A program made the position numbers and the translations under genes. From IMG/VR virus record IMGVR_UViG_3300026522_000846: 27,852 bases of DNA. The stretch is one strand, 5' to 3'. Position 1 is the stretch's first letter. The number at the start of each line of letters is the position of its first letter. Positions 1,774-27,730 of this stretch are shown here, piece by piece. Under the pieces are notes generated by a model, which was not told the origin of the DNA, ran no database searches, and was given only the letters and a program-made list of their open reading frames with translations. Origin of the DNA: an uncultured virus (IMG/VR IMGVR_UViG_3300026522_000846). Lineage: Duplodnaviria > Heunggongvirae > Uroviricota > Caudoviricetes.

Positions 1774-1797
1774 GTTAAAGACCGTAGGTCGAACGTC
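1774..1797 (+). repeat. Palindromic element type II, partial copy (GTTAAAGACCGTAGGTCGAAC)
   Basis: The 21-mer is identical to 13489-13509. Confidence 0.85.
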
Positions 1798-2515
1798 ACA
1801 GATCCACTCCACGGAATACGTCATCCATTGTATGCCCTTCTTCTACTGCTTTTATGCAGACGGCTGACAGCTGCTTTACGGCTGTGTCTGTTTGAATTTT
1901 GACGATCGTTGTCCTGTCTCCGAATATACTGCGGAATACCGACTCTATTTTCTTTTGGTCGGCATAAGCTTCTTTTGGAATGTCAAACTCTTCTTTCTTC
2001 ATCGCATCCTTCAGATCCCACACCGTACTGAAACCCTCTTTCTGCAAAAGAACGTCATTTTTCCTGTCGCCAAAGAAGGGAATTCTCTCGTTTTTCATGT
2101 ACTTTGCATACATCTTGTCGTATTTCCTGTTCTGTACAGGAACATAGGAGCAGTCATACGTCAAATAGTCTTTTTTGTTATACAAAAAGTTGTATGTATG
2201 CCCTATGATCTCGTCTTCTCTCGGTCTCCTGAACATGGAGATAGTCATACTGTCTGTTTTTCGGGAATATTCAGCAGACGCTTTTCGATATTCAGGACTC
2301 GTTATGTCATACGTTCTGCACATCCATAAGCGTCCGTTCCGAAACTCATCGGCTAGGCTGTTATCCTGCATCATCCATGTTTCGGGAACGGCAGGACAAC
2401 CAAGTTCCGTCAGTGCATGATTTAATTCAGCTACTTTCTTTTCAAATGTTTCAGTGTCTTGAAAACTGTCTGTGCGTATCTCAAGTTCCAGATCAACTGT
2501 AAATTTCGTATTCAT
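1796..2515 (-). CDS. Hypothetical protein (about 239 aa) with its own promoter
   Basis: ORF 1796-2581; start moved to MNTKF at 2515 (AAAGGGGG RBS) because the first 22 codons run mostly through a palindromic element. Confidence 0.7.
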   Translation of the reverse strand: MNTKFTVDLELEIRTDSFQDTETFEKKVAELNHALTELGCPAVPETWMMQDNSLADEFRNGRLWMCRTYDITSPEYRKASAEYSRKTDSMTISMFRRPREDEIIGHTYNFLYNKKDYLTYDCSYVPVQNRKYDKMYAKYMKNERIPFFGDRKNDVLLQKEGFSTVWDLKDAMKKEEFDIPKEAYADQKKIESVFRSIFGDRTTIVKIQTDTAVKQLSAVCIKAVEEGHTMDDVFRGVDL

Positions 2516-2529
2516 AAAACCCCCTTTAA

Positions 2530-2580
2530 TGGAGTGAACCAAAGGTTCACTCCTAGGAATGAATGCAGGCATTCGTTCCA
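2530..2580. repeat. Palindromic element type I (double hairpin) in a 5' UTR
   Basis: T-GGAGTGAACC-AAA-GGTTCACTCC-TA-GGAATGAATGC-AG-GCATTCGTTCC-A. Confidence 0.9.
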
Positions 2581-2614
2581 TTTGATTTCGACATTCGTTG
2601 TATCTTATATCTAC

Positions 2615-2642
2615 ATTGTATGCCTTTGTACGTTTCTGTCAA
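2615..2642 (-). promoter_or_regulatory. Sigma-A-type promoter
   Basis: Minus strand TTGACA-16 nt-TACAAT, just downstream of the virB4 terminator and about 100 bp upstream of the 2515 start. Confidence 0.65.
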
Positions 2643-2644
2643 AC

Positions 2645-2679
2645 AAAAAAAGATGGAAGGGATTATTCTCTTCCATCTT
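2645..2679 (-). terminator. Rho-independent terminator after virB4
   Basis: AAGATGGAAGGGA-TTAT-TCTCTTCCATCTT stem with a T run on the minus strand. Confidence 0.75.
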
Positions 2680-2693
2680 CCTTCGCGTTTATC

Positions 2694-5177
2694 CTACGCC
2701 TGTTCCGCATCTTTCGGCTTCGTACTCATGATACGGTAAAGTTCCGTGTCGGTCGGGAAGTTGTTCTCGAACGGAATGTTCTGCGTTCCGATATGAATGA
2801 GTCCGTGTCCGCTGTCCACACCATTGATATATGATATTTCTGTCTCATTAAGGCTCAACATCTGTCGCAGAGCCTCACGGTCAAGCATTGCCTGATTGAG
2901 CATTTCAATGAAGTTGGTGTTATTGATGATGGAACGTGCATCCGGGGACTGAAGAAGATCTTCAACGTTCTGGGTAATTCCCGTCAGCACCAGTCCGAAC
3001 TTTCTGGCACGCTTCCACATGGTCTTTACAGTCTCGGAAGATGTCTCATTTCGAAGGAGCATATGAAACTCATCAATAAAGGCATAAGTCAGTCTGCCTT
3101 TGAGTGCATTCTCCGTAGCCTTTGTCCATATCATGTTCAGACACACCTTAAGTCCAAGCTCTTCCAAGGTCGAACCGATATGATGTATGTCGAATACGAT
3201 AAGTCTCTTATCTATATCAACATCAGTCCTGCTTGCAAAAGAGTCATATCCCTGTCCGCAGAACATCTCGATGTTCAAAGCCAATTCCTGTGCTTCGGGA
3301 TAGTCCTGTCCGTATTCAAGAAGTCCCTTCATTAAGTCCTGAAGCGTAGGTGCTACCCTCCTGTCGATCGTTGGCTGTCTGCCGGTCACGGGGTCAGGGT
3401 TCTCATTCGAAAGAGTTCGTATATAACTCTGATACAGTCTTGTAAGCACCTTATTGATGAGAGACTTGTGAGCCGGTGTAAGGGTACTGTAGTTCCTCGA
3501 CACACCGCCCTGCATCATGGTGTCGCAGAGACTGGTCACAAAGTCTGCCTGCTGTGCAAGCGGATTTGTGGTCTCATCGATAGATGTATCCATATCGAGG
3601 TCGAACGGATTAAGATGTACGCCGTTGCCGGGTGCGATCTTTATCACAGTACCGCCAAGTTCGTTTGCGATGGCTGAATACTCACCATCGGGATCGATAA
3701 CGTAAACATAGGCGTTACTGTTTAAGATGGCATTTATCATGAGCATTTTAGCTGCAAAGGATTTACCTGAACCTGATGCTCCAAGGATAAGACCGTTATA
3801 GTTCATGCCCTTCATTCGGTCGAGGAAGATGACTGATTTATTAACGGAATTGAGACCGTAATAGAATCCATGCTCATCCAATGTAGATGTTTCCGTGAAC
3901 GGCATGAATGCGGCCATATTCTCTGTCGTGAGAAGTCTCTTCATGTAGGTATGGTTAGTATTCAGAGGAAGGCTTGCATTGAAGCCGTTTTCCTGCTGAA
4001 GCACAAACGGTGTAAAGTGGCACAGGTTCTGATTCTGTACTGACTTTATCGCAGCCTTTGTCCTGTCGAGTTCATCTACTGTATTTCCAAATGCCGTAAG
4101 GTTCATCTGGAAATAGAACACTCTCTGGTCTCTCGACTGCATATCACGTTCAAGCTGTTCTACCTGATCCTTGACTATCTCAAGGTCTCCTCCGATAAGG
4201 TCGGGGCTGTATCCTGACTTTACGGCAGCCTTCTGTTTCTCAACAAGCTCCGAGTTTATCATGACTTTTTTGTTATGTACGATCTTTGTTCCCTCGGCTT
4301 GGTCTAGCGGCTGTACGTCAATGGATATCAGAAGCTTTGCATTGATGTCCATGAGATTACCCACAAAGTCTGTAGAAAGGAAGTTCGCTATACCTGACAG
4401 ATACATGGACTGTGCCACTTCTTCTCCGACAATGAACCTGTTGGAAGAAAACTTGAATGCGGGCGGAGCAATAAGATCCTTTGTTGTCATTCCTGTTTTC
4501 TTTAACATATCAAAGTCCACAGTGGTATTTCCCTTTTCATCATGATGGAAAAGAGGATTGTCAGATGTGCCGTATATCTCGGCAAGGACTTCGAGATACT
4601 CATCAATAGTCAGTGCCCTTACTTCCTTTTTCAGGAATGTTCTCATCTCCTGTGCGACTCTCAGATCAAGATCTTTGAAATGCTTTGCCGCAGCGTCTAC
4701 GCTCTTCTCACGGACACTGTAACAGAGATACCTGTTCGTGATTATTGAACCTCTTGACTCCACAAGCTTTGTGTGGATAATGTCGTTCATTTCCTCACGA
4801 AGATGATCCATGGAGTCGCCCTGTTCCTGCATCTTCATTTTTGCAAATCGAAGATCAATATCGTCTACCGTATTGAGAAGTATGAACTGCACATGCTCAT
4901 TCGCTTCGATGGAATTTAAGAATGTCTCATACTTGTCAAAGAAATTGTTCTGCTCTTCATCAGAAAGCGTTTTGAAGTTCGCTTCGGGTAACTGATAGAG
5001 TTTACAGAACACGCCCGGTTCAGACTGTATCATTCCATTCGGATATACATCAATATATGGAATGGTACGCTGTGCCGTTGTTGCCTGTTTCTTTCTTGCC
5101 TTTTCGCTTGATGCGGACGCACCATTATTTGAACTTGTACTGCTGACACCTGTCAGCATTTTCTGCCAATCAGCCAT
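2694..5177 (-). CDS. virB4: VirB4-like conjugative transfer ATPase (TraE/TrsE family)
   Basis: 827 aa; Walker A GASGSGKS, IDPDGEY, LNPFD, Walker B FIDEFH, KRARKFG..TGITQNVEDLL; lies downstream of a PrgI-like gene. Confidence 0.93.
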   Translation of the reverse strand: MADWQKMLTGVSSTSSNNGASASSEKARKKQATTAQRTIPYIDVYPNGMIQSEPGVFCKLYQLPEANFKTLSDEEQNNFFDKYETFLNSIEANEHVQFILLNTVDDIDLRFAKMKMQEQGDSMDHLREEMNDIIHTKLVESRGSIITNRYLCYSVREKSVDAAAKHFKDLDLRVAQEMRTFLKKEVRALTIDEYLEVLAEIYGTSDNPLFHHDEKGNTTVDFDMLKKTGMTTKDLIAPPAFKFSSNRFIVGEEVAQSMYLSGIANFLSTDFVGNLMDINAKLLISIDVQPLDQAEGTKIVHNKKVMINSELVEKQKAAVKSGYSPDLIGGDLEIVKDQVEQLERDMQSRDQRVFYFQMNLTAFGNTVDELDRTKAAIKSVQNQNLCHFTPFVLQQENGFNASLPLNTNHTYMKRLLTTENMAAFMPFTETSTLDEHGFYYGLNSVNKSVIFLDRMKGMNYNGLILGASGSGKSFAAKMLMINAILNSNAYVYVIDPDGEYSAIANELGGTVIKIAPGNGVHLNPFDLDMDTSIDETTNPLAQQADFVTSLCDTMMQGGVSRNYSTLTPAHKSLINKVLTRLYQSYIRTLSNENPDPVTGRQPTIDRRVAPTLQDLMKGLLEYGQDYPEAQELALNIEMFCGQGYDSFASRTDVDIDKRLIVFDIHHIGSTLEELGLKVCLNMIWTKATENALKGRLTYAFIDEFHMLLRNETSSETVKTMWKRARKFGLVLTGITQNVEDLLQSPDARSIINNTNFIEMLNQAMLDREALRQMLSLNETEISYINGVDSGHGLIHIGTQNIPFENNFPTDTELYRIMSTKPKDAEQA

Positions 5178-5187
5178 AAACTCTCCT

Positions 5188-5616
5188 TCACTTTATCGCA
5201 ATGAGCATCGGATCTTTGCTTGCCTTGACCGGGTGCTTTTTATCGACAATATTCTTATCTTTGCCTTTTTCTTTGCCCTTTTCTACACCGTTCTCTTTTT
5301 CAAACTCCGCAATACACGCATTCTCGGCATGATACAGTCTTTTTACGGGGTTCAGAAAATTATCCCTTACTATGATTGGAAGTATCTTTTCTATAGGCTC
5401 GCCGTATATCTTAAGGAACCCTAATGCAAAAAACGGCAGGGCTGCGGCCATGGCAAGATATATCCTGTTCTGTGTGCTGAAATTCGCTGCACCCTTGAAT
5501 CCCACGAACAATGCAAAAGCAAGTCCGATTCCGCCAAACACTACCTGTCTTGTGGTAAAATCTCCAATTGCTCTGTTTTCACGGGATAATATGTCCTTCG
5601 ACATCGTAACAAACAT
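5188..5616 (-). CDS. prgI: PrgI-family (VirB3-like) membrane protein
   Basis: 142 aa; KDI..E...GDFTTRQ motif, two TM segments and GF.KIYGEPIEK, as typical of PrgI; immediately upstream of virB4. Confidence 0.85.
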   Translation of the reverse strand: MFVTMSKDILSRENRAIGDFTTRQVVFGGIGLAFALFVGFKGAANFSTQNRIYLAMAAALPFFALGFLKIYGEPIEKILPIIVRDNFLNPVKRLYHAENACIAEFEKENGVEKGKEKGKDKNIVDKKHPVKASKDPMLIAIK

Positions 5617-5634
5617 AATATTCTCCTTTTATGT

Positions 5635-6603
5635 TCACGCACCAAATGCTTCACTGACAACGCTTTGAAGCTTTTTGATCATTCCTACTTCGCCAAGTCC
5701 GATTGCCATATTCACGATTATCATTACGATAAATGACGCTACGCCACTCGCATCGCCTATCGACGAATTTATACCTGCCTGTATTACCTTTGCCATGGAA
5801 AAGACGACCTTGATGAGCGGACCCATCGCAAGCAGTGCTATATAACGCTTGAAATATCTTACTGCCGTTCCACGCCAACCTTCTTCCGTTGCAAACGAGA
5901 ATGCTATCGGCATTAATGCACCACGAATACACATCTCCATTAGCCTCGACAGAAGCGTCGTTAGTATCAAAAGCAATGGTATAAATTGGAAGAAACTGAA
6001 CATACCATTTGATGCTGCATTCATGGCTCGCTCAAATCCGTTGTTTGGCATCATACTGTTTATCGAGTTAAACATCGATTTTGCCGACATCGAAGTTCCT
6101 CCGGCACTGCCCTGATGATCTATAAGGTCACCCATCCAGTCAGCTACCGCCTGTCCGCCGTCAAGGAACTTCTGACAGTTGTCGATCATGAATATGCCGA
6201 CAACGAGCCTTGCAAAGAATTTTGTGAAACTGTCTATGTTCATTCGCTCACTCATGCCAAGTTCCACGAGAGCGATGATAAAAAAAATAAGTGCTATGGC
6301 ATATGCTACAGGCACAAGTGACGCTGACACCGAACTCTGAAATCCGAGAAGAAAGTTATCTTCCCCCGATCCAAATCCGTTAAGAGAAACCGCTTTATCT
6401 ATCAACGTGCTGAAAGGTCCGTTATCACAGGAAGCCTGAGTCCAGATGACGTTTTTGGCATAGTCAGCTTCTGACATTTTGAACAAGCCACCTTTATCGG
6501 AGAATCCAAGATCCATAGCAAGCTTCTTGGCGTCATCTTTACCTTTCATCGCCTTATATTGTTTTGTGAAGTCGGCATCCGACATATTTGAAAATTTAGC
6601 CAT
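5635..6603 (-). CDS. VirB6/TrbL-like polytopic conjugation membrane protein
   Basis: 322 aa with several TM segments; RLMEMCIRGALMPIAFSF...RYFKRYIAL resembles Gram-positive VirB6-like proteins; position in the operon fits. Confidence 0.72.
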   Translation of the reverse strand: MAKFSNMSDADFTKQYKAMKGKDDAKKLAMDLGFSDKGGLFKMSEADYAKNVIWTQASCDNGPFSTLIDKAVSLNGFGSGEDNFLLGFQSSVSASLVPVAYAIALIFFIIALVELGMSERMNIDSFTKFFARLVVGIFMIDNCQKFLDGGQAVADWMGDLIDHQGSAGGTSMSAKSMFNSINSMMPNNGFERAMNAASNGMFSFFQFIPLLLILTTLLSRLMEMCIRGALMPIAFSFATEEGWRGTAVRYFKRYIALLAMGPLIKVVFSMAKVIQAGINSSIGDASGVASFIVMIIVNMAIGLGEVGMIKKLQSVVSEAFGA

Positions 6604-6640
6604 AAAATATTTTCCTTCACTTTTTAACGATTAAAAAAAA

Positions 6641-6678
6641 CGAACTAAAGGATCGCTCAAAGAACGATCCTCGGTTCG
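6641..6678. other. Intergenic imperfect hairpin with a C-AAA-G loop
   Basis: CGAAC..AGGATCGCTC-AAA-GAACGATCCT..GTTCG, with a T run on the minus strand; a terminator/attenuator or a relative of the palindrome family. Confidence 0.55.
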
Positions 6679-6698
6679 TGAATAACTCTTCGTTCCTT

Positions 6699-7076
6699 TT
6701 ATAGTCCGATCTGACCTTTGAGAGGAGCCCAAAGAAGTGCCTTGAATGCGATCAGGACTGCACCTATAACGACATCCTTTGCACCACTCGAAATAGCTTC
6801 GGGGTTATTATCATTTCTTACACCCTGAACAACTTTGAATCCGCCCATAAGCACGAAGAATACTCCAATATAAGGAAGAACTCCCGCTATGGCATCCGCA
6901 ACTGTGGTTACAAGACCCTTTGCCTTGGTCTCGTCACCGCCTATGGCGTCTGCGTGTACTCCCGGCACAAGTACTGTACCGCCTATGGCACCTGTGACCA
7001 TCGCTGTTGTTACAGCCGTCCTCATGGACGACATCTTGTCTTCTGCCTTCAGAAGAATCTGTTTTGTTTTCTGCAT
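6699..7076 (-). CDS. VirB2/TrbC-like pilin (small membrane protein)
   Basis: 125 aa; signal-like N-terminus ending VHA, then two hydrophobic helices; first gene of the T4SS run. Confidence 0.65.
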   Translation of the reverse strand: MQKTKQILLKAEDKMSSMRTAVTTAMVTGAIGGTVLVPGVHADAIGGDETKAKGLVTTVADAIAGVLPYIGVFFVLMGGFKVVQGVRNDNNPEAISSGAKDVVIGAVLIAFKALLWAPLKGQIGL

Positions 7077-7175
7077 ACTTTACCTCTTTTCAATACGCAT
7101 TTTTTGGGGACAGAATGAAAAGGTCTGTCTCGTTTTTTTCTCTAGGAAAGGGACTTTAGTCTCTTTCTCTTCGAT

Positions 7176-7211
7176 AAAATATATGAGTAAAACGTTAAGT
7201 GTACTTTTGAA
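7176..7211 (-). promoter_or_regulatory. Conserved upstream motif, copy 2
   Basis: AAAATATATGAGTAAAACGTTAAGTGTACTTTTGAA is 35/36 identical to 15568-15603; about 100 bp upstream of the T4SS genes. Confidence 0.75.
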
Positions 7212-7237
7212 TGGAACGAATGCTTACATTCGTTCCA
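7212..7237. repeat. Palindromic element type I, single hairpin
   Basis: T-GGAACGAATG-CTTA-CATTCGTTCC-A; same module as 2556-2579. Confidence 0.8.
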
Positions 7238-7246
7238 ATGGATAGT

Positions 7247-8221
7247 TCATTCCGCTGTTTTCGTATCCTTATTGACGCTTTCCTGACTGAATTCACCATC
7301 GGCATTCGTATTTGCAAACCCTTCCGTGTTAACGCCGTCTGTAAGACTTTCGGTGCTTGATCCCTTTACCGAAATGTTATCCTCTGCATTCCCGTCAGAG
7401 TTCTCTTTATCGGATTTGTCAGCGTCCTTTGCGTCTTCCGCATCGCTGTTCTTTTTCTCGTTCAGCACTTTCTCATATCCGTCTGCCGTATTGACGATCC
7501 TTGAAACGGTCATGGTGTTTCCTGACGCCATAGCTTTACCAAACATGATCTGCTCATCCTTATCCATGAGAAGCTGAAGCATGCTTGCTCTTGTCGCATT
7601 GTCGGCAGATGAGATCGGATTACCGTCTCCGTCAAAAGCGTTCTTGATATAAACGTTTTCCATTACGAAGTTTGCGGTAACGGTATCGTCATCCTTTGCC
7701 GAAAGCATGAAGTTTACAAGGTCGCCTTTTCTTAAAAGTCCTGCATTCGCATTCTCTGCGGATACTGCCATCGAGACCTCAACGGGATCTGTAAAGATAT
7801 TTTCTATATCTTTTGTAGACACCGTAGCCTTCTTCGAAAGAATTGCACCCTTGCTCATAGAGACAAGCGTCTTTCTTCCGATAAGGTCGTTTACCGTTGA
7901 CATCGCATCCCCCGGACGTATCGTGTCATCCATATTTATGCCGGTAAGATAATTCTTCCAGTTCTTCTTTGTTATGACTGTTCCCTTGGGAATGGCTTTA
8001 GATGTCACGATCGTCATCGTGTAGTGCTTCGGCGTATTGATGTATCTTTCCAGATAGACCAGTCCGCAGAAGATAGCAGCCGCTGCAATCACGCCAACAA
8101 TGGCGTAGACATACTGCTTTGTTTCCTTTTTCTCTTTCATTTTCAGGTTCTGAATGTTCGGCATCATTTCATAATCTGCCTTGGATCCATCGCCCTTTTT
8201 CGTGTTGTCAAAAAATCCCAT
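7247..8221 (-). CDS. cpaB: Flp pilus assembly protein CpaB/RcpC (SAF domain)
   Basis: N-terminal TM, VTSKAIPKGTVIT and LIGRKTLVSMSKGAIL (SAF-like), AGLLRKGDLVNF (RcpC-like); Tad cluster context. Confidence 0.8.
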   Translation of the reverse strand: MGFFDNTKKGDGSKADYEMMPNIQNLKMKEKKETKQYVYAIVGVIAAAAIFCGLVYLERYINTPKHYTMTIVTSKAIPKGTVITKKNWKNYLTGINMDDTIRPGDAMSTVNDLIGRKTLVSMSKGAILSKKATVSTKDIENIFTDPVEVSMAVSAENANAGLLRKGDLVNFMLSAKDDDTVTANFVMENVYIKNAFDGDGNPISSADNATRASMLQLLMDKDEQIMFGKAMASGNTMTVSRIVNTADGYEKVLNEKKNSDAEDAKDADKSDKENSDGNAEDNISVKGSSTESLTDGVNTEGFANTNADGEFSQESVNKDTKTAE

Positions 8222-8233
8222 GAGATGCTCCTT

Positions 8234-9109
8234 CTATTCTCTTCCATCATTTTCCGCAGTCGTAATGTCCATGATCTCGGTCACTGCAACACCGGGAAGG
8301 TTGCCCTTTGTGTTATAGCGTACATAATAACTGTCCGGATCTTTCACATTTGTTGCATTTGCTTTTTCCATCGTTTTGTCATCAAACCGCACAAGAAGTC
8401 CTCTGCCGTTCTCGGTATCGGGAATAGAACCGTTATTTAAAAGCACGGCTTTCATGGCGGCATCCGTTCTGTTTGCAAAAGCTACTCTTGCGTAAATGGT
8501 AGAACCTGACGGATATACACTATCGCTACGAGTAATTTTCTTTATGTACGGCAGAGCCTTGTTCCCTGTTATCGTTGAAAGCTCGTCATCCTTTACGGTA
8601 CAACCGTTTGTTTCCTTTACGGTGCCGTTATCACAAGTGTACGGATAGACACGGAAGTTATTCAATGTGTAATTTCCGTGTGCGTCAGGATCGCCTACAC
8701 ACTCTATGACGAAAAACTCGAGGACTTGTACCTTTTTATCTCCCGCCATGTTATGGAGAGCACCGCTTTTGGGACGAAGGTCTGTTCCGAGGTCAAAGTT
8801 CTGTACCAAGGCATGATTAAACTTTCTCGCTATCTTGTCTTTTGCCGACTGTATCGCCATTTCCCTACCGCCATTATCGTATGACTCCAATATCAGCGTA
8901 GAACCAAGTTCGGTCTTTTCTATTTGGTTCGCAAATATAGCGTCCGATAATGCGATTTGAGTGCCGTTATGCAGTTCTTCCGACGCAAGCTCCGAATTAT
9001 CAGTCAACATGCGGTAATGGATCGACACTATCACTATGAGGAACAGTGCCATTGAAAGCACGGATATTACCGCATTTACCGCTCCCTTTTCCCGCATTAC
9101 CTTCTGCAT
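8234..9109 (-). CDS. Tad pseudopilin or minor pilin-like protein (TadE/G-like)
   Basis: Start re-placed at MQKVMREKG (AAGGAG RBS); EKG followed by a hydrophobic helix resembles a class III signal peptide. Confidence 0.6.
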   Translation of the reverse strand: MQKVMREKGAVNAVISVLSMALFLIVIVSIHYRMLTDNSELASEELHNGTQIALSDAIFANQIEKTELGSTLILESYDNGGREMAIQSAKDKIARKFNHALVQNFDLGTDLRPKSGALHNMAGDKKVQVLEFFVIECVGDPDAHGNYTLNNFRVYPYTCDNGTVKETNGCTVKDDELSTITGNKALPYIKKITRSDSVYPSGSTIYARVAFANRTDAAMKAVLLNNGSIPDTENGRGLLVRFDDKTMEKANATNVKDPDSYYVRYNTKGNLPGVAVTEIMDITTAENDGRE

Positions 9110-9591
9110 GTCGTACTCCTTACAATGTGGTAAGTAACAGGACGCCTTGTTTCCGGCATCATGCCGTGCCACACAGAACCAAAAACATTAGTCATCGGAG
9201 AATAGAAATAGATCGTAACGTCCATCGTTACCTGTTCGCCGTAAAGAGCCGATTTCGTACCGCCCTTACCACTGCTCTTATTTAAAAGCGTTATGTCCTG
9301 ATTATCCTGTGAAGCAGTGTTGACGGCACTACCGGCAGATTGAACAAGATGAACATTATTCTCGGCAAGTTCCTTCTTGAAGTTCCTGTCGATCTCATTC
9401 GTCCACTCGCCTGTCTCTTCCATCTGGTACAGAGCGTTCTTGGCAGCAAGGTCGATCGCCATCTTCATTCGGACGCCTCTTGCGTAATTGAAATAAAGCA
9501 ACATTAAAGCAAACACTATAACGGAAACAAGCATGACTTCAAAGAGATCTACTGCACCGCCCTTTTCTGTTTCATTTGATTTGTTCCGCAT
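9097..9591 (-). CDS. TadE-like pseudopilin
   Basis: Start re-placed at MRNKSNETEKGG; EKG plus hydrophobic helix, then IDLAAKNAL and YGEQVT; between flp and cpaB. Confidence 0.65.
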   Translation of the reverse strand: MRNKSNETEKGGAVDLFEVMLVSVIVFALMLLYFNYARGVRMKMAIDLAAKNALYQMEETGEWTNEIDRNFKKELAENNVHLVQSAGSAVNTASQDNQDITLLNKSSGKGGTKSALYGEQVTMDVTIYFYSPMTNVFGSVWHGMMPETRRPVTYHIVRSTTCRR

Positions 9592-9610
9592 ACGTTTTTT
9601 CCTTATGATA

Positions 9611-9638
9611 TGGAAAGGGGTACGAGACGTACCCCTCC
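9611..9638. other. Strong hairpin between flp and the tadE-like gene
   Basis: AGGGGTACG-AGA-CGTACCCCT bracketed by TGGA...TCC, like type I modules. Confidence 0.6.
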
Positions 9639-9663
9639 TCATTTTTTACTACAAGATGCTAAG

Positions 9664-9903: not shown

Positions 9904-9980
9904 TTTCTTCTTCCTTTCTTTGTTAAAAATATGAATTACTCCATTAAACAAGGAAAAATCCCTGTTTCGTTTTCTAAATT

Positions 9981-10000
9981 TTTATGAATAAAACGTAAGT
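9981..10000 (-). promoter_or_regulatory. Conserved upstream motif, copy 3
   Basis: TTTATGAATAAAACGTAAGT, about 80 bp upstream of the pilin start. Confidence 0.65.
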
Positions 10001-10017
10001 ATCATTTTTTTACTGTT

Positions 10018-10899: not shown

Positions 10900-10916
10900 A
10901 AAACCACCTCGTTCCA

Positions 10917-20205: not shown

Positions 20206-20212
20206 AAACAGG

Positions 20213-20238
20213 CTTAACATTTTACTCATAGATATTTT
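20213..20238 (+). promoter_or_regulatory. Conserved upstream motif, copy 5 (inverted, matching + strand genes)
   Basis: CTTAACATTTTACTCATAGATATTTT matches the reverse complement of copies 2 and 4 (CTTAACGTTTTACTCATATATTTT). Confidence 0.7.
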
Positions 20239-20248
20239 AGAACGAGTG

Positions 20249-20271
20249 TTGGAACGATTCGGTCGTTCCAA
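20249..20271. repeat. Palindromic element type I, single hairpin
   Basis: TTGGAACGA-TTCGG-TCGTTCCAA. Confidence 0.7.
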
Positions 20272-20288
20272 AGGAAGGGAGATAAATT

Positions 20289-20417
20289 ATGGCATTACGA
20301 AATGCACTTGTAGCAGGACTTTTGGCTTGTATATTCGCAAGCATTTTTGCATCTGACGAGGACTACAACAAAGTTCATGGCAAAGTCGGGGAACTTTTGA
20401 AAAAGGCGGACGCATGA
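20289..20417 (+). CDS. 42-aa small protein with a hydrophobic N-terminus
   Basis: MALRNALVAGLLACIFASIFASDEDYNKVHGKVGELLKKADA; strong GGAAGGGAG RBS; TGA overlaps the next ATG. Confidence 0.65.
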   Translation: MALRNALVAGLLACIFASIFASDEDYNKVHGKVGELLKKADA

Positions 20418-21289
20418 GAAAAGCAACCCTTATGCACAAGGATATTCCGACCGTTGAATTCCTTATGAACGAACAGGGCAACTGTTCAAGAGTCCTGTCG
20501 GTATCAAACGAGAAGCATCTCCCTCCGTCCATTCCTCACATCAACGATGAGGATGACGTAAATTTCTGGCTCAAAAATCGGCGTGTCTCTGATAAGCGTG
20601 CCGATGTGAAAGCGTTGAAGGATGCCCGTGTCGTGAACGAGAGTTGGTTCTTACCGCTCCATTATCTGTCGCTTTATGACTGCTATTGGGTTCGTCTTAA
20701 TGAGAATGAGCGATGGGACAGCATTAACCTTTACATCCAACCCGAAACGGAAGATGTGTTCTCGCTGATGGAAGATAAGGACGAAAACAAGGATGTCCTG
20801 ATGTCGAGAGATACTGGCAACATGACGCTACCGTTGCCGAGAGAATGCAGATATTTGCAGGACGAATCCGACTGCAACATTTTTTATCTCGCCATAAGGA
20901 CTGAACTGACGGAACAGCCTGTTTTTCTTCAGGAAAAGTACAGACCATATGTTCCGACTGTTAAAGGCGACTACCTTTTCATATATGACGAGGTTTATTA
21001 CAGATTTCAGAATCAAGCAAGCCTTGCTATGGAATACATTCCTGCAGGTGATCTCTTTCATGGATATGCAAGCGATCCCATTTACAAAGGTCTGCCTGAA
21101 GAAAAAATATTTTTTATGGCGATAGACGATGTAAAAATACCCAATGCGAGAAAGTTCCTGTCGGGAATGCTCGCCTGTGACAGGAAATACAATGTGGCAA
21201 GGAACATATCAACATTCGGATATTACCGTGATCCGGACACATTAAAGCCGTTCGGATTTGCACCATTGTTTTTATGGCCAATGGCGTGA
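20414..21289 (+). CDS. HipA-like fold protein with degenerate catalytic motifs (putative pseudokinase)
   Basis: WL.NRR, LSLYDCYWV, W..INLY and MLACD..YNVARNISTFGYYRDPDT....FAPLF parallel HipA-like N.DRH..NFG...APIFD, but the catalytic residues are missing. Confidence 0.65.
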   Translation: MRKATLMHKDIPTVEFLMNEQGNCSRVLSVSNEKHLPPSIPHINDEDDVNFWLKNRRVSDKRADVKALKDARVVNESWFLPLHYLSLYDCYWVRLNENERWDSINLYIQPETEDVFSLMEDKDENKDVLMSRDTGNMTLPLPRECRYLQDESDCNIFYLAIRTELTEQPVFLQEKYRPYVPTVKGDYLFIYDEVYYRFQNQASLAMEYIPAGDLFHGYASDPIYKGLPEEKIFFMAIDDVKIPNARKFLSGMLACDRKYNVARNISTFGYYRDPDTLKPFGFAPLFLWPMA

Positions 21290-21302
21290 TGTAAGGAGAA
21301 TT

Positions 21303-22961
21303 ATGACTATTCGAGAAGCAATTAAAGAATATACTTTGCATAACCTCGGAATGACCTCCGAGGAATACAATGCCCTGAAGGACAAGTCTTTCGGCATGGA
21401 TGAAAAGGTCAGAAAGAAGTTCTATGCCATTGTAAAGAACTCTGACCATATCGACATTCTGGGCGACTATGACTGTGATGGTGTCACATCGACATATATC
21501 ATGTATAAGCTGATGACGAGTACCTTTCATAAAGACACAGGATTTCTGATCCCGAACCGTATCACAGATGGATATGGTATTCAGAAGAAACTCATAGACC
21601 GCCTGTATGAACGGAGAAAAGATGCCTTGGATAGGGGTGAAGTTTGTACCATTGTAACCGTGGATAACGGCATCGCAGGAGCAGAGCCAATTGCCTATGC
21701 AAAAGAACTCGGATTCCGTGTCATCGTGACAGACCATCACGAACAGGGACTGAACGAGATACCAAGGGCAGATCTTGTTATCGATCCGAAAGCCAAGGAC
21801 TGCAACCCCTTTGATTATGACGGTTATTGTGGTGCGGGTGTTGCTTATAAGATCGCAGAACAATTCGTGAAGAATCCGAAATTCTTACGTCATCTCCGCT
21901 CGTTCGCTGCCTTGGGTACGGTAGCTGATGTGATGGAGCTGACAGGCGATAATTATAAGATAGTAAAGACTGCTCTCAATGAACTTTCGAACGGAATAAT
22001 GCCGACATCGTGGAGATACCTCGGCAAGGCATACAACACATTCCCTAATCATGATTTTGCATGGGAGGACATTACGGAAAAGGACTTTGGGTTCATGTTC
22101 GGTCCGATCATCAACGCCCAGTCTCGTATGGAAGATGCTGGAGCGACCAAGGCAGAAAAGTATCTTCTGCACCCGACCGAGGAAATGGCAAAGGAAATGG
22201 TAAAGGTCAATGAGACCAGAAAAGACCTGACCAAAACCTTGTATGCAGGCGTGGAAAAGAAGATCGAAGAAACAGGTCTGAAGTCGCCTTTATGGGTATA
22301 TATTCCGCAGGTCAATGAAGGCATTATCGGTATTCTTGCAGGAAATATTACGGAACGGTTCGGAGTACCCTGTATCGTACTGACCGATACAGAGGATGAG
22401 AAAGTGCTGAAAGGCTCTGCCCGTTCCATTCAGGGATTTGACATCTTTGACTATCTGTGCAGTCTGCCCAAGGAATATTTTGTCGGATTTGGCGGTCATA
22501 CAGGTGCAGCCGGACTGTCGGTCTATCGGGATAAGTTAGAAGAAATTCAGAATCTTCCCGATCTGTCCGTCTATGCCGAATGCGACCATCTGGAACCGAA
22601 TTTCGTCATCGATCAGGACGAGATGGAAGAATGTTACCATGCCCTTCGTGAATTTGCTCCCTTCGGACAGGGTAATCCCGCTCCCCTCTTCGGTGTCCAC
22701 ATGAATCCCATGGAAAAGAAACCCTATCTGTGCGGAAGTGACAAGAATACTGCACTCTTCTTTGGCGACCATGGAAAGGTGACGGTGTTCCGATACAAGG
22801 ATATGCTTGGTGACATAAACCCTAACAAACCATTCCTTGCCGTTGGAGAATTGAATGCAGAACGGTACAAAGGCAATAAGGGAATCAATCTGATCGCCAG
22901 CGAACTGAAAGACGAACGGACCTTGGAAAAAGAAAAAGGCCCAAACTTGCAAATACGTTGA
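21303..22961 (+). CDS. recJ: RecJ-like ssDNA exonuclease (DHH/DHHA1)
   Basis: GDYDCDGVTS, TVDNG, TDHH, ALGTVADVM, KGSARS, GGHTGAAG, PFGQGNPAP; AAGGAG RBS before ATG 21303. Confidence 0.93.
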   Translation: MTIREAIKEYTLHNLGMTSEEYNALKDKSFGMDEKVRKKFYAIVKNSDHIDILGDYDCDGVTSTYIMYKLMTSTFHKDTGFLIPNRITDGYGIQKKLIDRLYERRKDALDRGEVCTIVTVDNGIAGAEPIAYAKELGFRVIVTDHHEQGLNEIPRADLVIDPKAKDCNPFDYDGYCGAGVAYKIAEQFVKNPKFLRHLRSFAALGTVADVMELTGDNYKIVKTALNELSNGIMPTSWRYLGKAYNTFPNHDFAWEDITEKDFGFMFGPIINAQSRMEDAGATKAEKYLLHPTEEMAKEMVKVNETRKDLTKTLYAGVEKKIEETGLKSPLWVYIPQVNEGIIGILAGNITERFGVPCIVLTDTEDEKVLKGSARSIQGFDIFDYLCSLPKEYFVGFGGHTGAAGLSVYRDKLEEIQNLPDLSVYAECDHLEPNFVIDQDEMEECYHALREFAPFGQGNPAPLFGVHMNPMEKKPYLCGSDKNTALFFGDHGKVTVFRYKDMLGDINPNKPFLAVGELNAERYKGNKGINLIASELKDERTLEKEKGPNLQIR

Positions 22962-23072: not shown

Positions 23073-23171
23073 AATTGGCAGAAATGTGCAGAAAGAGCGG
23101 TGAGTCTGATGATTGAAGATATATTTGATATGAGTGAAGAACGAGAAGACGATATTGAGGAAGAACGATGA
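23073..23171 (+). pseudogene. Probable 3' remnant of a gene ending ...EEREDDIEEER*
   Basis: Short open frame with an in-frame stop just upstream; shares its last codons with the kinase gene. Confidence 0.45.
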
Positions 23172-23188
23172 TGAGTCCGTTAAAACGA
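23149..23188 (+). repeat. 40-bp direct repeat, left copy
   Basis: ACGATATTGAGGAAGAACGATGATGAGTCCGTTAAAACGA, identical to 24740-24779. Confidence 0.95.
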
Positions 23189-23210: not shown

Positions 23211-23432
23211 ATGCTTAGTTATTCTGAAAAGCTAGACGATGAGACAAAAGAAGACTTTGAAACTTACCAAAAAGCCTTATCTTTGTATCAGGAAAACTCC
23301 AATCCGGATACCCACTATGAACTGCTATGCGCTTATCAGAACATTTTCAATGACCTGAAAATGCTTCGATCCATTCATCGGATTTCGGATACGGAATTTG
23401 AAGTGCTTAGAAAGGAAATTAATAATGCATGA
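23211..23432 (+). CDS. Small acidic helical protein, candidate antitoxin or partner of the kinase
   Basis: 73 aa, GAAAGGAA RBS, overlaps the kinase start by 8 nt. Confidence 0.65.
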   Translation: MLSYSEKLDDETKEDFETYQKALSLYQENSNPDTHYELLCAYQNIFNDLKMLRSIHRISDTEFEVLRKEINNA

Positions 23433-24762
23433 ATTTCTAAACAATATTAATGCTCATATCATAAAGGAAGAACTCAACGTATATAGTGGCTCGGAAAGGA
23501 AGAAAACACTTTTGATGGACGACGGTCAACGATACATGTTAAAATTCCCAGATCCTACACGAGAAAAAGGATTGCGTCTTTCTTACATAAACAATACCAT
23601 CTCAGAATATCTTGGATGTCATGTTTATCAGACCATCGGACTTTCGGTTCAGAAGACTTCGCTTGGAATTTATATCGCAGACATGGCAGGGACAGGAACT
23701 CCGAAAATTGCATGCTTGTGTCGAGACTTCAAAAATGACGGAATTACTTTGCACGAAGCAGAGAAACTGCTTCTGTCCTCTGTTGACTCCGATGCACAAA
23801 ACAGTCTAACATTGTCAACCGTTAAAAGGCTCTTAAAAGAAACTACAAATGATTGGCAGACAGCGTGGAAGAAGTATTGTGATATGACAATTGTGGATGC
23901 CTTGATCGGAAACACGGATCGTCACAATGGAAATTGGGGATTGGCAGAATACCCAGATCATACAATTTCGATGGCGCCCGTCTTTGACTGTGGGTCTTCT
24001 TTTTCTCCTTTGCTCTCAGATGAAGAGTTGTCAGAAAGAATTGCGAATCGGGAAGCACTCACCGTACAATCCGCACTACGAGACGAAAATACACACAGGA
24101 AATTATCCTTTGCCGAAATCTTAAACGGTCATGAGCCAGAAATTCTTCGAGCAGAGCGAAGGATTATTCCAAAAATTTCTCTTCAGGCAATCAACGATGT
24201 GATTGACAGTATCCCTTATATTTCCGAAAGGAGAAAGGGGTTTTACAAGTCGCTAGTTTCTGTTCGATATGAGAAACTGTTGATCCCGACGCTGGAAAAA
24301 AATCTGTCTATTCAAAAGACAGACGAATACAAACAATGGAATTCTAAAGTAATTGCTAAGATTTTTGAACTCTATATTTCGGCACTTTGTCAATTGCCCG
24401 AAAATTGTGACACACAAATTACTATTAATCATCACAATTTCGTTGTAAGACGAAATGGCGATTATCTCTTTCTAATGAACAACCAAGAAGAATGTGACGG
24501 TCTCATTCACCTAAAAAAAACAAATCTGAATATCGGTAAATTTGTTCAATGTATGAGAAACTTAGGCTGTCCGATTAATATCCACGACATCATTTTAGAG
24601 ACAAGAAACGAAGCTTCGAATGTTGAAAAATCGGATTCTCGGAATGTAAACGCAACAGGTACTGTTGAAAACGGGGCAGATACCATTCCTATTGATTCGG
24701 CATGTAATCTGCTTGACGAGGAGGAAACCGTCGATATGAACGATATTGAGGAAGAACGATGA
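23425..24762 (+). CDS. HipA/CtkA-family Ser/Thr kinase with a C-terminal extension
   Basis: YSGSERKK, YMLKFP, SEYLGCHVY, DALIGNTDRHNGNWG, MAPVFDCGSS; about 150 extra C-terminal residues. Confidence 0.88.
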   Translation: MHEFLNNINAHIIKEELNVYSGSERKKTLLMDDGQRYMLKFPDPTREKGLRLSYINNTISEYLGCHVYQTIGLSVQKTSLGIYIADMAGTGTPKIACLCRDFKNDGITLHEAEKLLLSSVDSDAQNSLTLSTVKRLLKETTNDWQTAWKKYCDMTIVDALIGNTDRHNGNWGLAEYPDHTISMAPVFDCGSSFSPLLSDEELSERIANREALTVQSALRDENTHRKLSFAEILNGHEPEILRAERRIIPKISLQAINDVIDSIPYISERRKGFYKSLVSVRYEKLLIPTLEKNLSIQKTDEYKQWNSKVIAKIFELYISALCQLPENCDTQITINHHNFVVRRNGDYLFLMNNQEECDGLIHLKKTNLNIGKFVQCMRNLGCPINIHDIILETRNEASNVEKSDSRNVNATGTVENGADTIPIDSACNLLDEEETVDMNDIEEER

Positions 24763-24779
24763 TGAGTCCGTTAAAACGA
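24740..24779 (+). repeat. 40-bp direct repeat, right copy
   Basis: Spans the kinase stop and the HTH gene start; identical to 23149-23188. Confidence 0.95.
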
Positions 24780-24989: not shown

Positions 24990-25167
24990 TGACAATGGCA
25001 AGGTGACCGTTTTCCGATATAAGGACCTTTTGGGTGACATAAACCCTAACAAGCCATTCCTAGCGATTGGAGAACTGAACGCGGAACGATATAAGGGCAA
25101 CAGGGGAATCAACCTCATCGCTGCTGAACTGGAAGAAGATAAGGTGCGGGAAGGGGAAAAAGGGTAA
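24985..25167 (+). pseudogene. Second, diverged copy of the recJ 3' end
   Basis: Reads FNDNGKVTVFRYKDLLGDINPNKPFLAIGELNAERYKGNRGINLIAAELEEDKVREGEKG*, collinear with recJ 22761-22940; in-frame stop upstream and no start codon. Confidence 0.9.
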
Positions 25168-25219
25168 AACTCATTCCGAGAAGTGACAATTTTTGTACGA
25201 ACCAAAAAAAATTATTCAT

Positions 25220-25257
25220 AAAAGAGAAGAGAAAGAAACAGCTCTCTTCTCTTTTTT
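25220..25257 (+). terminator. Terminator-like hairpin
   Basis: AAAAGAGAAGAGA...TCTCTTCTCTTTTTT after the recJ remnant. Confidence 0.6.
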
Positions 25258-25278
25258 ATGTATTGGAAAGGATTTTTA

Positions 25279-25944
25279 ATGCTGAATTTGGCGATTTTGA
25301 TTCCGTGCAAAAATGAAGAAAAAACGATTCGACAAGTCATTCGTGACTGTCAAAAAGAGTTACCGCAGGCAGAGATATTTGTCGGTGACAATAATTGTAC
25401 CGACAATACCAAAGCTGTTGCCGAGGACTGTGGTGTGACGGTCATTCCATGCCCTATTTCGGGGAAAGGTGCTGCCTTAAAGGTAATGATTCGTAAAGTA
25501 AAGGCAGATAAGTATCTTTTTATCGATGGTGACGGAACATATTCGGCACGGGATGGGAAAATGCTTTTGGATAAAATGATACATACACCTCATTGTGCCA
25601 TGGCGATCGGTGACCGAAGGAAACAGTATTTTGTGGAAAATCAATCACTCTTTCATGCACTTGGGAATCGCCTAGTGCCATATCTTGTGGCGAAAAAGTG
25701 CCATGCCCGTTCCGTGGATGTGATGTCGGGACTTCGCATTGTAACGCGGGCATTTCTGTTAAAATATCCCATTCAGTCTGATGATTTCACTGTGGAAACG
25801 GAACTGACCATGAACCTTTTCTGTTCCAGACAGCCGTATGTTACAGAGGATATTTCCTATCATGACAGACAGAAAGGATCTCGTTCCAAGATTTGTTCCA
25901 TCAAAGATGGAAGAAAAATCATTATGTGGATATTGAAACATTAA
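25279..25944 (+). CDS. GT2 glycosyltransferase (polyprenol-phosphate sugar synthase, DPM1/GtrB-like)
   Basis: ILIPCKNEE, DNNCTDNT, GKGAA, FIDGDGTY, DVMSGLR, FTVETELT, GSRSKI. Confidence 0.9.
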   Translation: MLNLAILIPCKNEEKTIRQVIRDCQKELPQAEIFVGDNNCTDNTKAVAEDCGVTVIPCPISGKGAALKVMIRKVKADKYLFIDGDGTYSARDGKMLLDKMIHTPHCAMAIGDRRKQYFVENQSLFHALGNRLVPYLVAKKCHARSVDVMSGLRIVTRAFLLKYPIQSDDFTVETELTMNLFCSRQPYVTEDISYHDRQKGSRSKICSIKDGRKIIMWILKH

Positions 25945-25948
25945 CGAA

Positions 25949-27730
25949 ATGGAGAAACTGATGTTACAGTCTTTAACTTTTCATAAACAGAAAAATTTAT
26001 TTAATGGAGTGAATCAAAGATTCACTCCTATTATCGCTGTTGTTTTTCTGGCGATCGCTCTTCTGATCCCTCAATGTATCAATATTGGCGGAGTCAGTGT
26101 TGACTATTATTATATGCTAAAAGACGGAGGGTATCTTTTAGACCATCCATGGTCGTTTCCCAAATCAAATGTCTTTTCTTATATTCCCGGACAGAAAATT
26201 CTGTTTCAGCAATGGGGGTATATGGTGCTTGCAGCCTTCCTGACTCGTACTTTCGGAAATGCCATTGGAACGATACTTTTGGTTGATCTGTCCGTAGCTC
26301 TTTTTGTCATTTCTTTTACATGGTTCTTTCGCCTGCGGAAAATTCCCATGTCCTTGAGTTTTCTGTTCGCCGTACTTTTGGAAGTTATTGAACCCTATCA
26401 CGGTGTCCGACCGGAACTATTGACTATTGCACTTCTTATGTTACAAATCTGCGGACTGGAGCAGTTTTGTAACGTAGGGGAAAAAGTAGAAACACTTCCA
26501 TTTTTTCGTGCGAAAAAGTGGAGATGGCTCTTGTTTTTACCATTTATGACAGTCCTGGAAATGAACCTGCATGGCAGTATGTGGATAATGCACTTTGTTG
26601 TCGTCCTGCCTTATCTTGTTCAATGGCTATTCCATCGACGGTTTCACCGACAGCAATATCCAAGATGGTACGGAATTTTCCTGTTTCTTGGCATGGTTTC
26701 CATGATCCCCTGCCTGTTTTTGAATCCGTATGGAATAGACGGCATTCTCTATCTGCCACGTTCAATGAAATATTTGAATCAGTACGGCGGTTGTATTTCA
26801 GAACTTCGCTCTGTCACGATGCCAAAACAAATAGGATTGATATTCTTTAGTCCGTGGGTTCGTGTGATGTCTGGGGTTTTGTTGTTGACGGTTTTTACCG
26901 TTCTCTCCATTGAATGGAACGAATGCGAAGCGATCAAGCAACTTGTTGCTTGCTTCGGAAGAATCGTTCCTAGGAGTGAACTAAAGGTTCACTCCATTGA
27001 GCGAAAAAAGCTGCATATTGGTGACTTCTGCATGATTCTCGGACTGACCGTATTGGCGTGGACAAAAGTACGGCAGACAATGTGGATGGATATTGCCTTT
27101 GCTTTCCTTATTGCGTGGTCGTCTGAACTTTTGCGAAGCAAAGGTTCAGAGTTAATGGAACGACACAAAGTGTCGTTCCTAGGAATGGATCGTAGATCCA
27201 TTCCATTAAAGACCGTAGGACGAACATTTAAATTCGAAAAAAGTAACAATAAACTGTCTTTTCTTGTAATGGCTTTGTCTGCTTTGGTATTGGTAACGAA
27301 TACTTATACGACCAATCTGAATGCTACATTCCATCCGAAAGATAGTATTATTACCCCGATAAAGGCAGTAAGATGGCTGAACGCTCACGGAAAGAGCAAA
27401 GCATCGATCCTATGCTGTCATGATTTCGGTTCGTATTTGCAGTACAAAGGCTTTCGTGTAGCCATGGACAGTCGTCCTGAATGCTATTCCAAAGCCATTG
27501 GTGGGCGTTCCGTAGCAGAAAACATTGTGCCTTTGTACGATATGAAATCTTATCATATCAGGAATGCAGACGCATACTATCACAAAATAACGACATTATA
27601 CCGTGCAGACTATGCCATAGCTTATGATCGAAGTGACATATTTTCCTATCTCATAAAGAACGATCCAAATTATCATGCGGTAGTCAAAGGGAAAGGATAT
27701 ATCCTGTACGAATGTGAAGCCTCACACTAA
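25949..27730 (+). CDS. Polytopic membrane protein, putative GT-C glycosyltransferase
   Basis: About 10 or more TM segments; D in the first outer loop, QQW, RPEL, NLHG, NPYG, DSRPE; adjacent to the GT2 gene. Confidence 0.65.
   Translation: MEKLMLQSLTFHKQKNLFNGVNQRFTPIIAVVFLAIALLIPQCINIGGVSVDYYYMLKDGGYLLDHPWSFPKSNVFSYIPGQKILFQQWGYMVLAAFLTRTFGNAIGTILLVDLSVALFVISFTWFFRLRKIPMSLSFLFAVLLEVIEPYHGVRPELLTIALLMLQICGLEQFCNVGEKVETLPFFRAKKWRWLLFLPFMTVLEMNLHGSMWIMHFVVVLPYLVQWLFHRRFHRQQYPRWYGIFLFLGMVSMIPCLFLNPYGIDGILYLPRSMKYLNQYGGCISELRSVTMPKQIGLIFFSPWVRVMSGVLLLTVFTVLSIEWNECEAIKQLVACFGRIVPRSELKVHSIERKKLHIGDFCMILGLTVLAWTKVRQTMWMDIAFAFLIAWSSELLRSKGSELMERHKVSFLGMDRRSIPLKTVGRTFKFEKSNNKLSFLVMALSALVLVTNTYTTNLNATFHPKDSIITPIKAVRWLNAHGKSKASILCCHDFGSYLQYKGFRVAMDSRPECYSKAIGGRSVAENIVPLYDMKSYHIRNADAYYHKITTLYRADYAIAYDRSDIFSYLIKNDPNYHAVVKGKGYILYECEASH
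26001..26030. repeat. Palindromic element type I, single hairpin in frame
   Basis: TTAAT-GGAGTGAATC-AAA-GATTCACTCC-TA; differs from 2526-2555 by one compensatory pair (C-G to T-A). Confidence 0.9.
26914..26996. repeat. Palindromic element type I with a nested CAAGCAAC hairpin, in frame
   Basis: GGAACGA-[ATGCGAAGCG-ATCAAGCAACTTGTTGCTTGCT-TCGGAAGAA]-TCGTTCC-TA-GGAGTGAACT-AAA-GGTTCACTCC. Confidence 0.88.
27117..27225 (+). repeat. Type II element interrupted by a type I element, in frame
   Basis: TCTGAACTTTTGC-GAA-GCAAAGGTTCAGA-GTTAA-[T-GGAACGACAC-AAA-GTGTCGTTCC-TA-GGAATGGATC-GTA-GATCCATTCC-ATTAA]-AGACCGTAGGACGAAC. Confidence 0.92.

Follow-up and report, generated by a model that had tools for sequence, protein, structure and literature searches.

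REP, BIME and REPIN sequences are palindromes of 20–35 nucleotides (nt), arrayed with linkers that alternate and found chiefly at gene ends or between cistrons, and it has been proposed that REPINs are mobilized as single-stranded DNA (ssDNA) hairpins by an HUH Y1 enzyme (RAYT). Among Firmicutes, Streptococcus pneumoniae carries the BOX, RUP and SPRITE repeats, in which interchangeable hairpin modules are combined in varying numbers. Other short DNA hairpins, such as Frpo, the ssi priming sites and the promoters of the phage N4 virion RNA polymerase, work only when single-stranded. Rickettsia palindromic elements (RPEs), as presented in the available part of PMC10969869, are in-frame palindromic insertions in unrelated functional genes that also occur between genes; BOX repeats are named in the same part of that source. 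Here we analyzed the hairpins of a 27.9-kb stretch of DNA (the window), filed in IMG/VR as an uncultured virus (IMGVR_UViG_3300026522_000846). We found that they share with RPEs the occurrence in frame within unrelated genes as well as between genes, and that they are probably (at a rough probability of 0.7) copies of short, selfish palindromic repeats, non-autonomous and of at least two families, which have multiplied within a plasmid lineage.

The window was compared with two relatives. G1 is a 51.6-kb IMG/VR record that is 96% identical to the window from position 13572 onward, in reverse orientation, and reaches ~39 kb past the right end of the window. C6 is contig 6 of 'Lachnospiraceae bacterium YH-ros2226' (genome G002, 2.6 Mb), which shows 66–77% identity to the window in rearranged blocks. 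The comparisons rest on two lineages, window/G1 and C6. A sequence-only reading of the window had described hairpins with DNA-type triloops, mostly on the + strand, and inspection of the sequence located the described loop at each of these positions:

13471 and 27133, + strand: GC-GAA-GC loops
19503, + strand: GC-GTA-GC loop
1782, 12058, 13497, 19529 and 27213, + strand: CC-GTA-GG or CC-GAA-GG loops
27190, + strand: TC-GTA-GA loop
2540, 6658, 26015 and 27166, + strand: C-AAA-G loops

The exceptions it had named also matched its description, and hairpins were indeed present inside genes of both directions, while three hairpins of opposite polarity, at 7213 (CTTA loop), 20017 (CCG) and 20258 (TTCGG), had been overlooked. 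Perfect stems of at least 7 bp numbered 20 in the window, compared with a mean of 4.0 and a maximum of 7 in 20 dinucleotide shuffles; for stems of at least 9 bp, the window had 10 (mean 0.35, maximum 2 in 20 shuffles), G1 had 35 (shuffle mean 0.5) and C6 had 5 (shuffle mean 0.9). Rather than being isolated structures, the hairpins grouped into repeat families. Both strands of the repeat stretches folded equally well as ssDNA, using folding parameters that treat the two strands alike.

Family B has the oriented consensus TCTGAnCC-TTTGC-loop-GCAAA-GGnTCAGA-GTTAAAG-nnC-GNA-Gnn-CGAAC. Its 51-nt unit (17 codons) consists of a hairpin of up to 13 bp (hairpin 1), GTTAAAG, a 4-bp mini-hairpin with a C-GNA-G triloop (hairpin 2) and CGAAC. 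When 12 copies were aligned, 93% of stem cells were paired, both sides had changed in 10 of the 17 pairs and G-U was seen in 1 of 204 cells; on these measures the alignment did better than all 500 shuffles and all slid controls. The loop of hairpin 2 was C-GNA-G in 21 of 23 copies, with variation in the middle base and in the stem, whereas the loop of hairpin 1 was GNA in 12 and ANA in 7 of the 24 copies aligned to the covariance model (CM). Judged by its GNA loop and closing 5'-C...G-3' pair, hairpin 2 would fall in the d(GCGNAGC)/C-GNA-G class, which is known as a class of stable DNA mini-hairpins (PMC13037366, PMC3201870, both in the parts available). A second subtype of family B has a shorter first stem, and the spacing of tandem copies is 51 nt. 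Matches above ~37 bits numbered 4 in the window, 7 in G1 and 20 in C6. Full, partial and weak copies in the window were the following:

206-242, - strand: weak reverse remnant inside open reading frame (ORF) 124-1626; CM 17.8 bits, E 0.065
1761-1797, + strand: partial copy (hairpin 2, CC-GTA-GG), intergenic; CM 28.4 bits
12014-12073, + strand: weak partial copy (hairpin 2) in the C-terminal part of the T2SSE-type ATPase ORF, a direct repeat; CM 16.3 bits, E 0.15
13456-13512, + strand: full copy, with a 13-bp GAA-loop hairpin and a GACC-GTA-GGTC mini-hairpin; CM 79.4 bits
15669-15725, - strand: reverse copy in the divergent intergenic region; CM 37.8 bits
19488-19544, + strand: full copy, in frame in DnaE (amino acids (aa) about 1084-1108); CM 78.3 bits
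27118-27229, + strand: copy interrupted by a nested family A pair, the whole lying in frame within the 593-aa ORF; CM 43.8 and 17.8 bits for the halves

The copy at 13456-13512 lies within the final 16 codons of the minus-strand ORF 13408-14022. In the copy at 27118-27229, the nested family A pair (27157-27204) was inserted at the GAGTTAAAG motif, with duplication of TTA(A) at window 27152.

Family A consists of hairpins of 23–25 nt with the form GGA-N-loop-N-TCC, in about ten stem variants, each of which recurs at several loci. These hairpins, which mostly come in pairs, form arrays with alternating linkers (hairpin-TA-hairpin-ATTAAAT-hairpin), in which the TA junction reads CCTAGG and the ends are palindromic (ATGGA...TCCAT); a pair plus linkers measures 54–57 nt. 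The window contained 13 copies and G1 contained 42, and C6 was at background level (10 weak calls vs 0–5 in shuffles). Family A in the window was represented, apart from the nested pair, by:

2531-2579: pair (loops AAA and CAGG), ahead of the point where ORF 1796-2581 probably begins
6650-6670: single family A-like hairpin with 1 mismatch, intergenic
7213-7236: single hairpin (loop CTTA), intergenic
13341-13390: pair (loops TTT and TTT), at the 5' end of the ATPase ORF 11888-13411 or directly upstream
19990-20037: pair (loops TTT and CCG), in frame in DnaE (aa 1257-1275)
26006-26028: single hairpin near the N-terminus of the 593-aa ORF
26912-26995: pair, the first hairpin with a nested CTTG-loop hairpin, in frame in the 593-aa ORF

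The pair at 2531-2579 is probably intergenic, because it lies upstream of the start suggested by a ribosome-binding site and ATG in ORF 1796-2581. For the ATPase ORF 11888-13411, homology to C6 begins at aa 27, directly after the pair at 13341-13390. A third hairpin family, with CAAG or CTTG loops and variable stems of 7–11 bp, was also seen in the window (1686-1721 and 26933-26968) and on C6, where it forms arrays with 30-nt spacing (1300/1330; 57851/57881/57911); one window copy was nested within a family A hairpin.

Several of these copies lie inside protein-coding genes, and the ORFs read straight through them. The two host genes compared in the window were:

16222-20205, + strand: plasmid DnaE (1327 aa; Pfam; 72% identity to C6 DnaE), host gene of two repeat insertions, a family B copy and a family A pair
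25949-27730, + strand: 593-aa membrane protein, host gene of three repeat insertions

In tblastn comparisons, C6 DnaE showed a clean 19-aa gap at the family A pair, with homology on either side, and a 13-aa gap at the family B copy, which is located in a variable linker; similarly, the C6 orthologue of the membrane protein had a 30-aa gap at the split family B copy (27118-27229). The C6 orthologues lacked exactly the repeat segments and their flanking homology was intact; therefore, the repeats are in-frame insertions. DnaE of the window and of G1 are 96.8% identical, yet the same hairpin pair is translated in different frames, because a 2-nt indel upstream is offset by another of the same size in the second loop. 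The inserted peptide is thus unconstrained and not conserved. The family A pair in DnaE adds 57 nt, and intragenic copies were multiples of three in length, kept the frame and were free of stop codons. Among the ORFs that carry further intragenic copies are those for a bactofilin-domain protein and a C5-methyltransferase in G1 and for a penicillin-binding protein in C6, and many other copies sit in short spacers between genes. Translational bypassing or excision of the inserts was considered and set aside, as every intragenic copy was in frame without stops. The situation corresponds to that of RPEs: a repeat within a conserved ORF, with the frame kept and homology on both flanks, and the same families at many unrelated loci.

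The relatives indicate what kind of replicon carries the repeats. The ends of C6 overlap by 90 nt, and it is therefore a circle of 143,739 bp. It encodes a Rep3 initiator, ParA, an actin-like protein, VirB4, PrgI, a coupling protein, a Mob_Pre relaxase and a topoisomerase, as well as DnaE, RecJ, IS200/IS605 units and IS21; it also has its own sigma-70-family protein (69882-70757). The element is therefore a conjugative megaplasmid, and the lineage is probably one of conjugative megaplasmids of about 140–160 kb in rumen Lachnospiraceae. The DnaE stretch was found in rumen (bovine gut) sequencing runs, one of which was metatranscriptomic according to the run listing. VirB4 of the window was 33% identical to genes annotated as 'VirB4-like conjugal transfer ATPase, CD1110 family' from Firmicute plasmids, and the nearest DnaE and VirB4 in a PLSDB search were just 30–34% identical to those of the window. 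G1 is filed as a linear viral contig with 32% completeness. Nevertheless, it contains ParA, an actin-like partition protein, helicases and IS elements and shows collinearity with a conjugative plasmid; G1 is probably a plasmid fragment, not a phage.

According to our searches, family B is restricted to the plasmid. Within the 2.6-Mb genome G002, 20 of 20 strong family B matches were located on C6 (150 of 1447 first-look candidates were scored), and both BLAST and pattern matches agreed with this restriction. Only one of 401 Lachnospiraceae genomes, G002 itself, contained the family B pattern. The same pattern occurred at 19 loci in IMG/VR, with multiple matches on G1's own contig only and one match each at the others, and on 3 contigs in a metagenome scan, of which two were pieces of the window or G1 and one was unrelated. 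A scan of a genome collection for the hairpin-2 motif gave 64 loci, mostly single and at chance level; one related Lachnospiraceae contig had 5 loci. Besides, a Methylococcales metagenome-assembled genome had ~9 matches to the 16-base hairpin-2 motif over several contigs, which is above chance for one genome, and it may hold an unrelated repeat containing the same mini-hairpin. No look-alike of the repeats was detected in PLSDB, no Rfam match, to the GA-cis motif or any other family, covered them at the gathering threshold or at E up to 1, and literature searches, which were not exhaustive, found no description of these families. The sole significant Rfam match was RAGATH-18 in G1 22218-22290 (72 bits, gathering threshold 44.9), directly downstream of the TnpB (OrfB_IS605) ORF 21010-22170. 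With regard to insertion sites, no family B site of the window had a counterpart at the corresponding C6 position when site lists were compared with the synteny map, with no dedicated search. For example, the spacer downstream of VirB4 contains a family A pair in the window and a family B copy in C6. The lineages thus show turnover of insertion sites, and in one of them family A has expanded recently.

Copies land between genes, and also within genes provided that they contain no stop and are divisible by three in length. We propose that template switching within the palindrome, folded in ssDNA during replication or transfer, would keep the arms perfectly complementary and would also let the loops invert; the available parts of PMC8794818 and PMC7202029 indicate that perfect stems can arise and be maintained by this mutational route. 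In family B, the combination of a conserved C-GNA-G loop, whose middle base is free, and a covarying stem suggests that the folded ssDNA hairpin is recognized by some enzyme, and the extruded hairpin may also be the form recognized by the enzyme that spreads the repeats.

Several observations weigh against the view that the hairpins are selfish palindromic repeats. Target duplications of 7 bp were present at G1 11335, 24816 and 23492, but other copies had none. No transposase was linked to the repeats, and the end hairpins of the IS200/IS605 units in G1 and C6 were unlike those of families A and B. Empty-site polymorphism was not found, as the window and G1 share every hairpin in their overlap. 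The conserved GNA triloop and covarying stems of family B look like selection on structure, and a purely selfish, drifting repeat need not show a conserved loop with a covarying stem. Two strand counts described below (14 vs 6 on C6, and 21 vs 11 antisense to genes) did not reach significance but are trends which might become firmer with more data. Finally, genes were called by a greedy longest-ORF rule and not by a trained gene finder.

A more specific proposal on how such repeats spread is that they are plasmid-bound, ssDNA-mobilized hairpin modules recognized by a plasmid HUH-type enzyme, either the relaxase or a Y1 transposase. The C-GNA-G mini-hairpin with its free stem would be recognized while the plasmid is single-stranded in conjugation or replication. 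If true, this would explain why the repeats spread only within the plasmid, and how stop-free modules of 51–57 nt colonize a densely coding replicon, including its own DNA polymerase gene. However, we regard it as unlikely. Y1_Tnp genes are present in G1 (37715-38206) and C6 (42824-43231), where they are paired with TnpB and have IS-type ends, and only a partial family B hairpin was found near the G1 gene. IS21 and TnpB copies also occur on the plasmids, and no link between them and the repeats was found. The ends of IS200/IS605 were considered as parents of the repeats and rejected, their end hairpins being different from both families; a transposon with ends matching the repeats, as expected for the parent of a miniature inverted-repeat transposable element (MITE), was thus not found among these units.

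It is also improbable that the repeats act at the RNA level like enterobacterial REP/BIME, by stabilizing upstream mRNA or modulating read-through in long operons. Many copies do lie in short co-directional spacers or in the last 9–28 codons of genes, and metatranscriptomic contigs, from a run which may hold DNA, contained all sampled words of window 19300-20300, a segment with two inserts. However, family B copies occurred in both orientations relative to transcription, G-U pairs were nearly absent, the hairpins were not followed by a T-run, copies were found deep inside genes, and Rfam had no match for the repeats. The earlier proposal that selection acts on ssDNA rather than mRNA was borne out in one part, since both orientations and Watson-Crick covariation suggest a DNA-level feature; a strand-specific role was not borne out.

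That role was the core of a further possibility, in which the hairpins are functional ssDNA signals on one strand (priming sites, ssDNA promoters or exonuclease blocks), possibly working with the plasmid DnaE and RecJ. It would fit the conserved C-GNA-G loops of hairpin 2 and the frequent GNA or ANA loops of hairpin 1 in family B, the confinement of family B to the plasmid, a conjugative replicon with relaxase, coupling protein and VirB4, and a slight surplus of family B on one strand (14 vs 6 on C6, 5 vs 2 in the window). As for strand polarity, on the + strand of the window, ~15 hairpins had purine-type and 10 had pyrimidine-type loops (p=0.42), which did not agree with the claim of loops mostly on the + strand. 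These hairpins are not independent, because they are grouped in 16 elements; when counted by element, family B gave 5 vs 2 and family A 5 vs 4, in total 10 vs 6 (p=0.45). Even the tally of the sequence-only reading, 13 vs 5, corresponds to p=0.096. On the complete circle C6, 14 family B copies were on the + strand and 6 on the - strand (p=0.12), and the minority copies, at 8.1, 36.0, 69.8 (two), 76.0 and 88.0 kb, were interspersed among the majority around the circle and not limited to one arm. Nor was there any relation to local GC skew on C6 (8 vs 12).

Similar results were obtained for family A, for which stems shorter than 9 bp were dropped and the window was combined with non-overlapping G1: loops were divided 21 vs 26 in window orientation (p=0.56), and 28 vs 19 relative to the coding strand of the nearest ORF (p=0.24). 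Among 12 orientable family A pairs, loops of the GGAACG hairpin were purine-type in 9 and pyrimidine-type in 3, and those of its partner were divided 7/5. Complementary loops occurred on identical stems in identical arrangements, and loops thus flip regardless of context. Relative to the nearest gene, 21 of all 32 family B copies were antisense and 11 were sense (p=0.11). The family B consensus has one open sense frame and two open antisense frames, and a mild antisense excess is the outcome expected from a stop-codon filter. We conclude that each element's own orientation sets the polarity of its loops, and that these orientations are distributed almost randomly over the two replicon strands.

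A function as ssDNA signals is not supported by these data, because it needs a replicon-wide polarity and the observed one was near random, also when relatives including the complete circle were counted; random polarity is what the sequence-only reading itself had named as its refutation, and in essence this is what was observed. Besides, copies were present in coding sequence where orthologues have none, a finding that suits mobile or selfish DNA better than functional sites at set places, and sites differed between the window and C6 (by comparison of site lists, with no dedicated search). The same two findings, near-random polarity and insertions that orthologues lack, speak against the suggested roles in priming, protecting or transcribing the transferred or lagging strand. 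Of the RecJ, DnaE and SSB-like genes to which these roles had been tied, RecJ and DnaE were recognized by Pfam, whereas no SSB family was matched in the window; Pfam scans of ORFs from the window, G1 and C6 contained neither an SSB nor a phage-type RNA polymerase family. Accordingly, we consider a strand-specific signal function quite improbable. A last idea, that the palindromes are double-stranded binding sites of a plasmid-encoded dimeric protein for partition, silencing or condensation, would suit plasmid-restricted repeats spread around the replicon, their conserved outer GGA...TCC and CCTAGG junctions, and a plasmid encoding ParA, an actin-like protein and bactofilin, but is very improbable, as the repeats lie within coding regions, C6 keeps the same gene set yet has family A at background level only, and inner stems vary freely (about ten subfamilies) with perfect complementarity, which fits structural constraint or self-templating and not sequence-specific recognition.

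Other features of the window were examined with regard to gene content and direct repeats. Minus-strand genes span 124-15450, and the remaining annotated features, from Pfam and the ORF listing, are:

2694-5177, - strand: VirB4-like ATPase
5188-5616, - strand: PrgI
11888-13411, - strand: T2SSE-type ATPase
15450-16222: divergent intergenic region, where GC skew changes sign
21258-22961, + strand: RecJ (Pfam)
23398-24762, + strand: HipA-like kinase ORF
among the plus-strand genes: GT2 glycosyltransferase

The divergent intergenic region (15450-16222) contains iteron-like direct repeats, such as TAAGGATGGGTTAAGGG, which occurs ~4 times at 15790-15950. The segment 15922-16057 has two further copies in G1 (6372-6493 and 8634-8719), which flank the ParA operon. 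These iteron-like repeats and segment copies could be partition or origin sites. Other direct repeats, of 31–43 nt and 81–91% identity, lie upstream of minus-strand operons (7169-7211/15561-15603 and 1737-1767/9981-10011) and may be shared promoters or leaders. The window segment 22938-24991 (~2.05 kb), which includes the HipA-like ORF, is absent from the 96–98%-identical G1. Copies of a 149-nt direct repeat (22767-22915 and 24991-25139, 80% identical) flank this segment on both sides, and an exact 40-nt repeat is present at 23149-23188 and 24740-24779.

If the hairpins are indeed mobile palindromic repeats, they document how selfish palindromic DNA lives within essential genes on a plasmid from a gut Firmicute, and the attractive but unsupported idea of a strand-specific ssDNA code around a conjugative plasmid is removed. 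For annotation, the consequence is that proteins acquire spurious N- and C-terminal extensions and odd inserts from the repeats, which may also help explain the filing of a plasmid fragment as a virus in a viral collection.

Comparison with described systems places the repeats closest to RPEs, to which we liken them by behavior and not by sequence. RPEs are ~100–150 bp long and reside on the chromosome of an intracellular alphaproteobacterium, whereas the present units are 51–57 nt, form modular arrays with near-perfect stems and reside on a Firmicute conjugative plasmid. Unlike REP and REPIN sequences, they have no conserved GTAG head and no RAYT-like gene flanked by repeats, and in contrast to those mainly extragenic elements, many copies are intragenic, several of them deep inside ORFs. 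BOX, RUP and SPRITE differ in sequence and module design and are chromosomal, whereas the present repeats are plasmid-confined, with in-frame intragenic copies prominent. The Frpo, ssi and N4 signals are few, at defined positions and on one strand, whereas the present repeats number in the dozens, lie on both strands and within genes, and differ in position between related plasmids. Nematomorpha mitochondria have perfect inverted repeats in protein-coding genes with both arms translated, as here, but according to the available part of PMC6649704 these palindromes are long (up to 284 bp) and mitochondrial, and no family of dispersed short modules is described in that part. What stands out in the present repeats is their plasmid confinement, their unit lengths in multiples of three, and a DNA-type GNA triloop that is kept while the stem covaries; plasmid restriction and the conserved GNA mini-hairpin in particular could set them apart from known kinds. 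On the whole, our comparison suggests that their behavior matches that of RPEs, and that their modular arrays match those of REP/BIME and BOX-type repeats.

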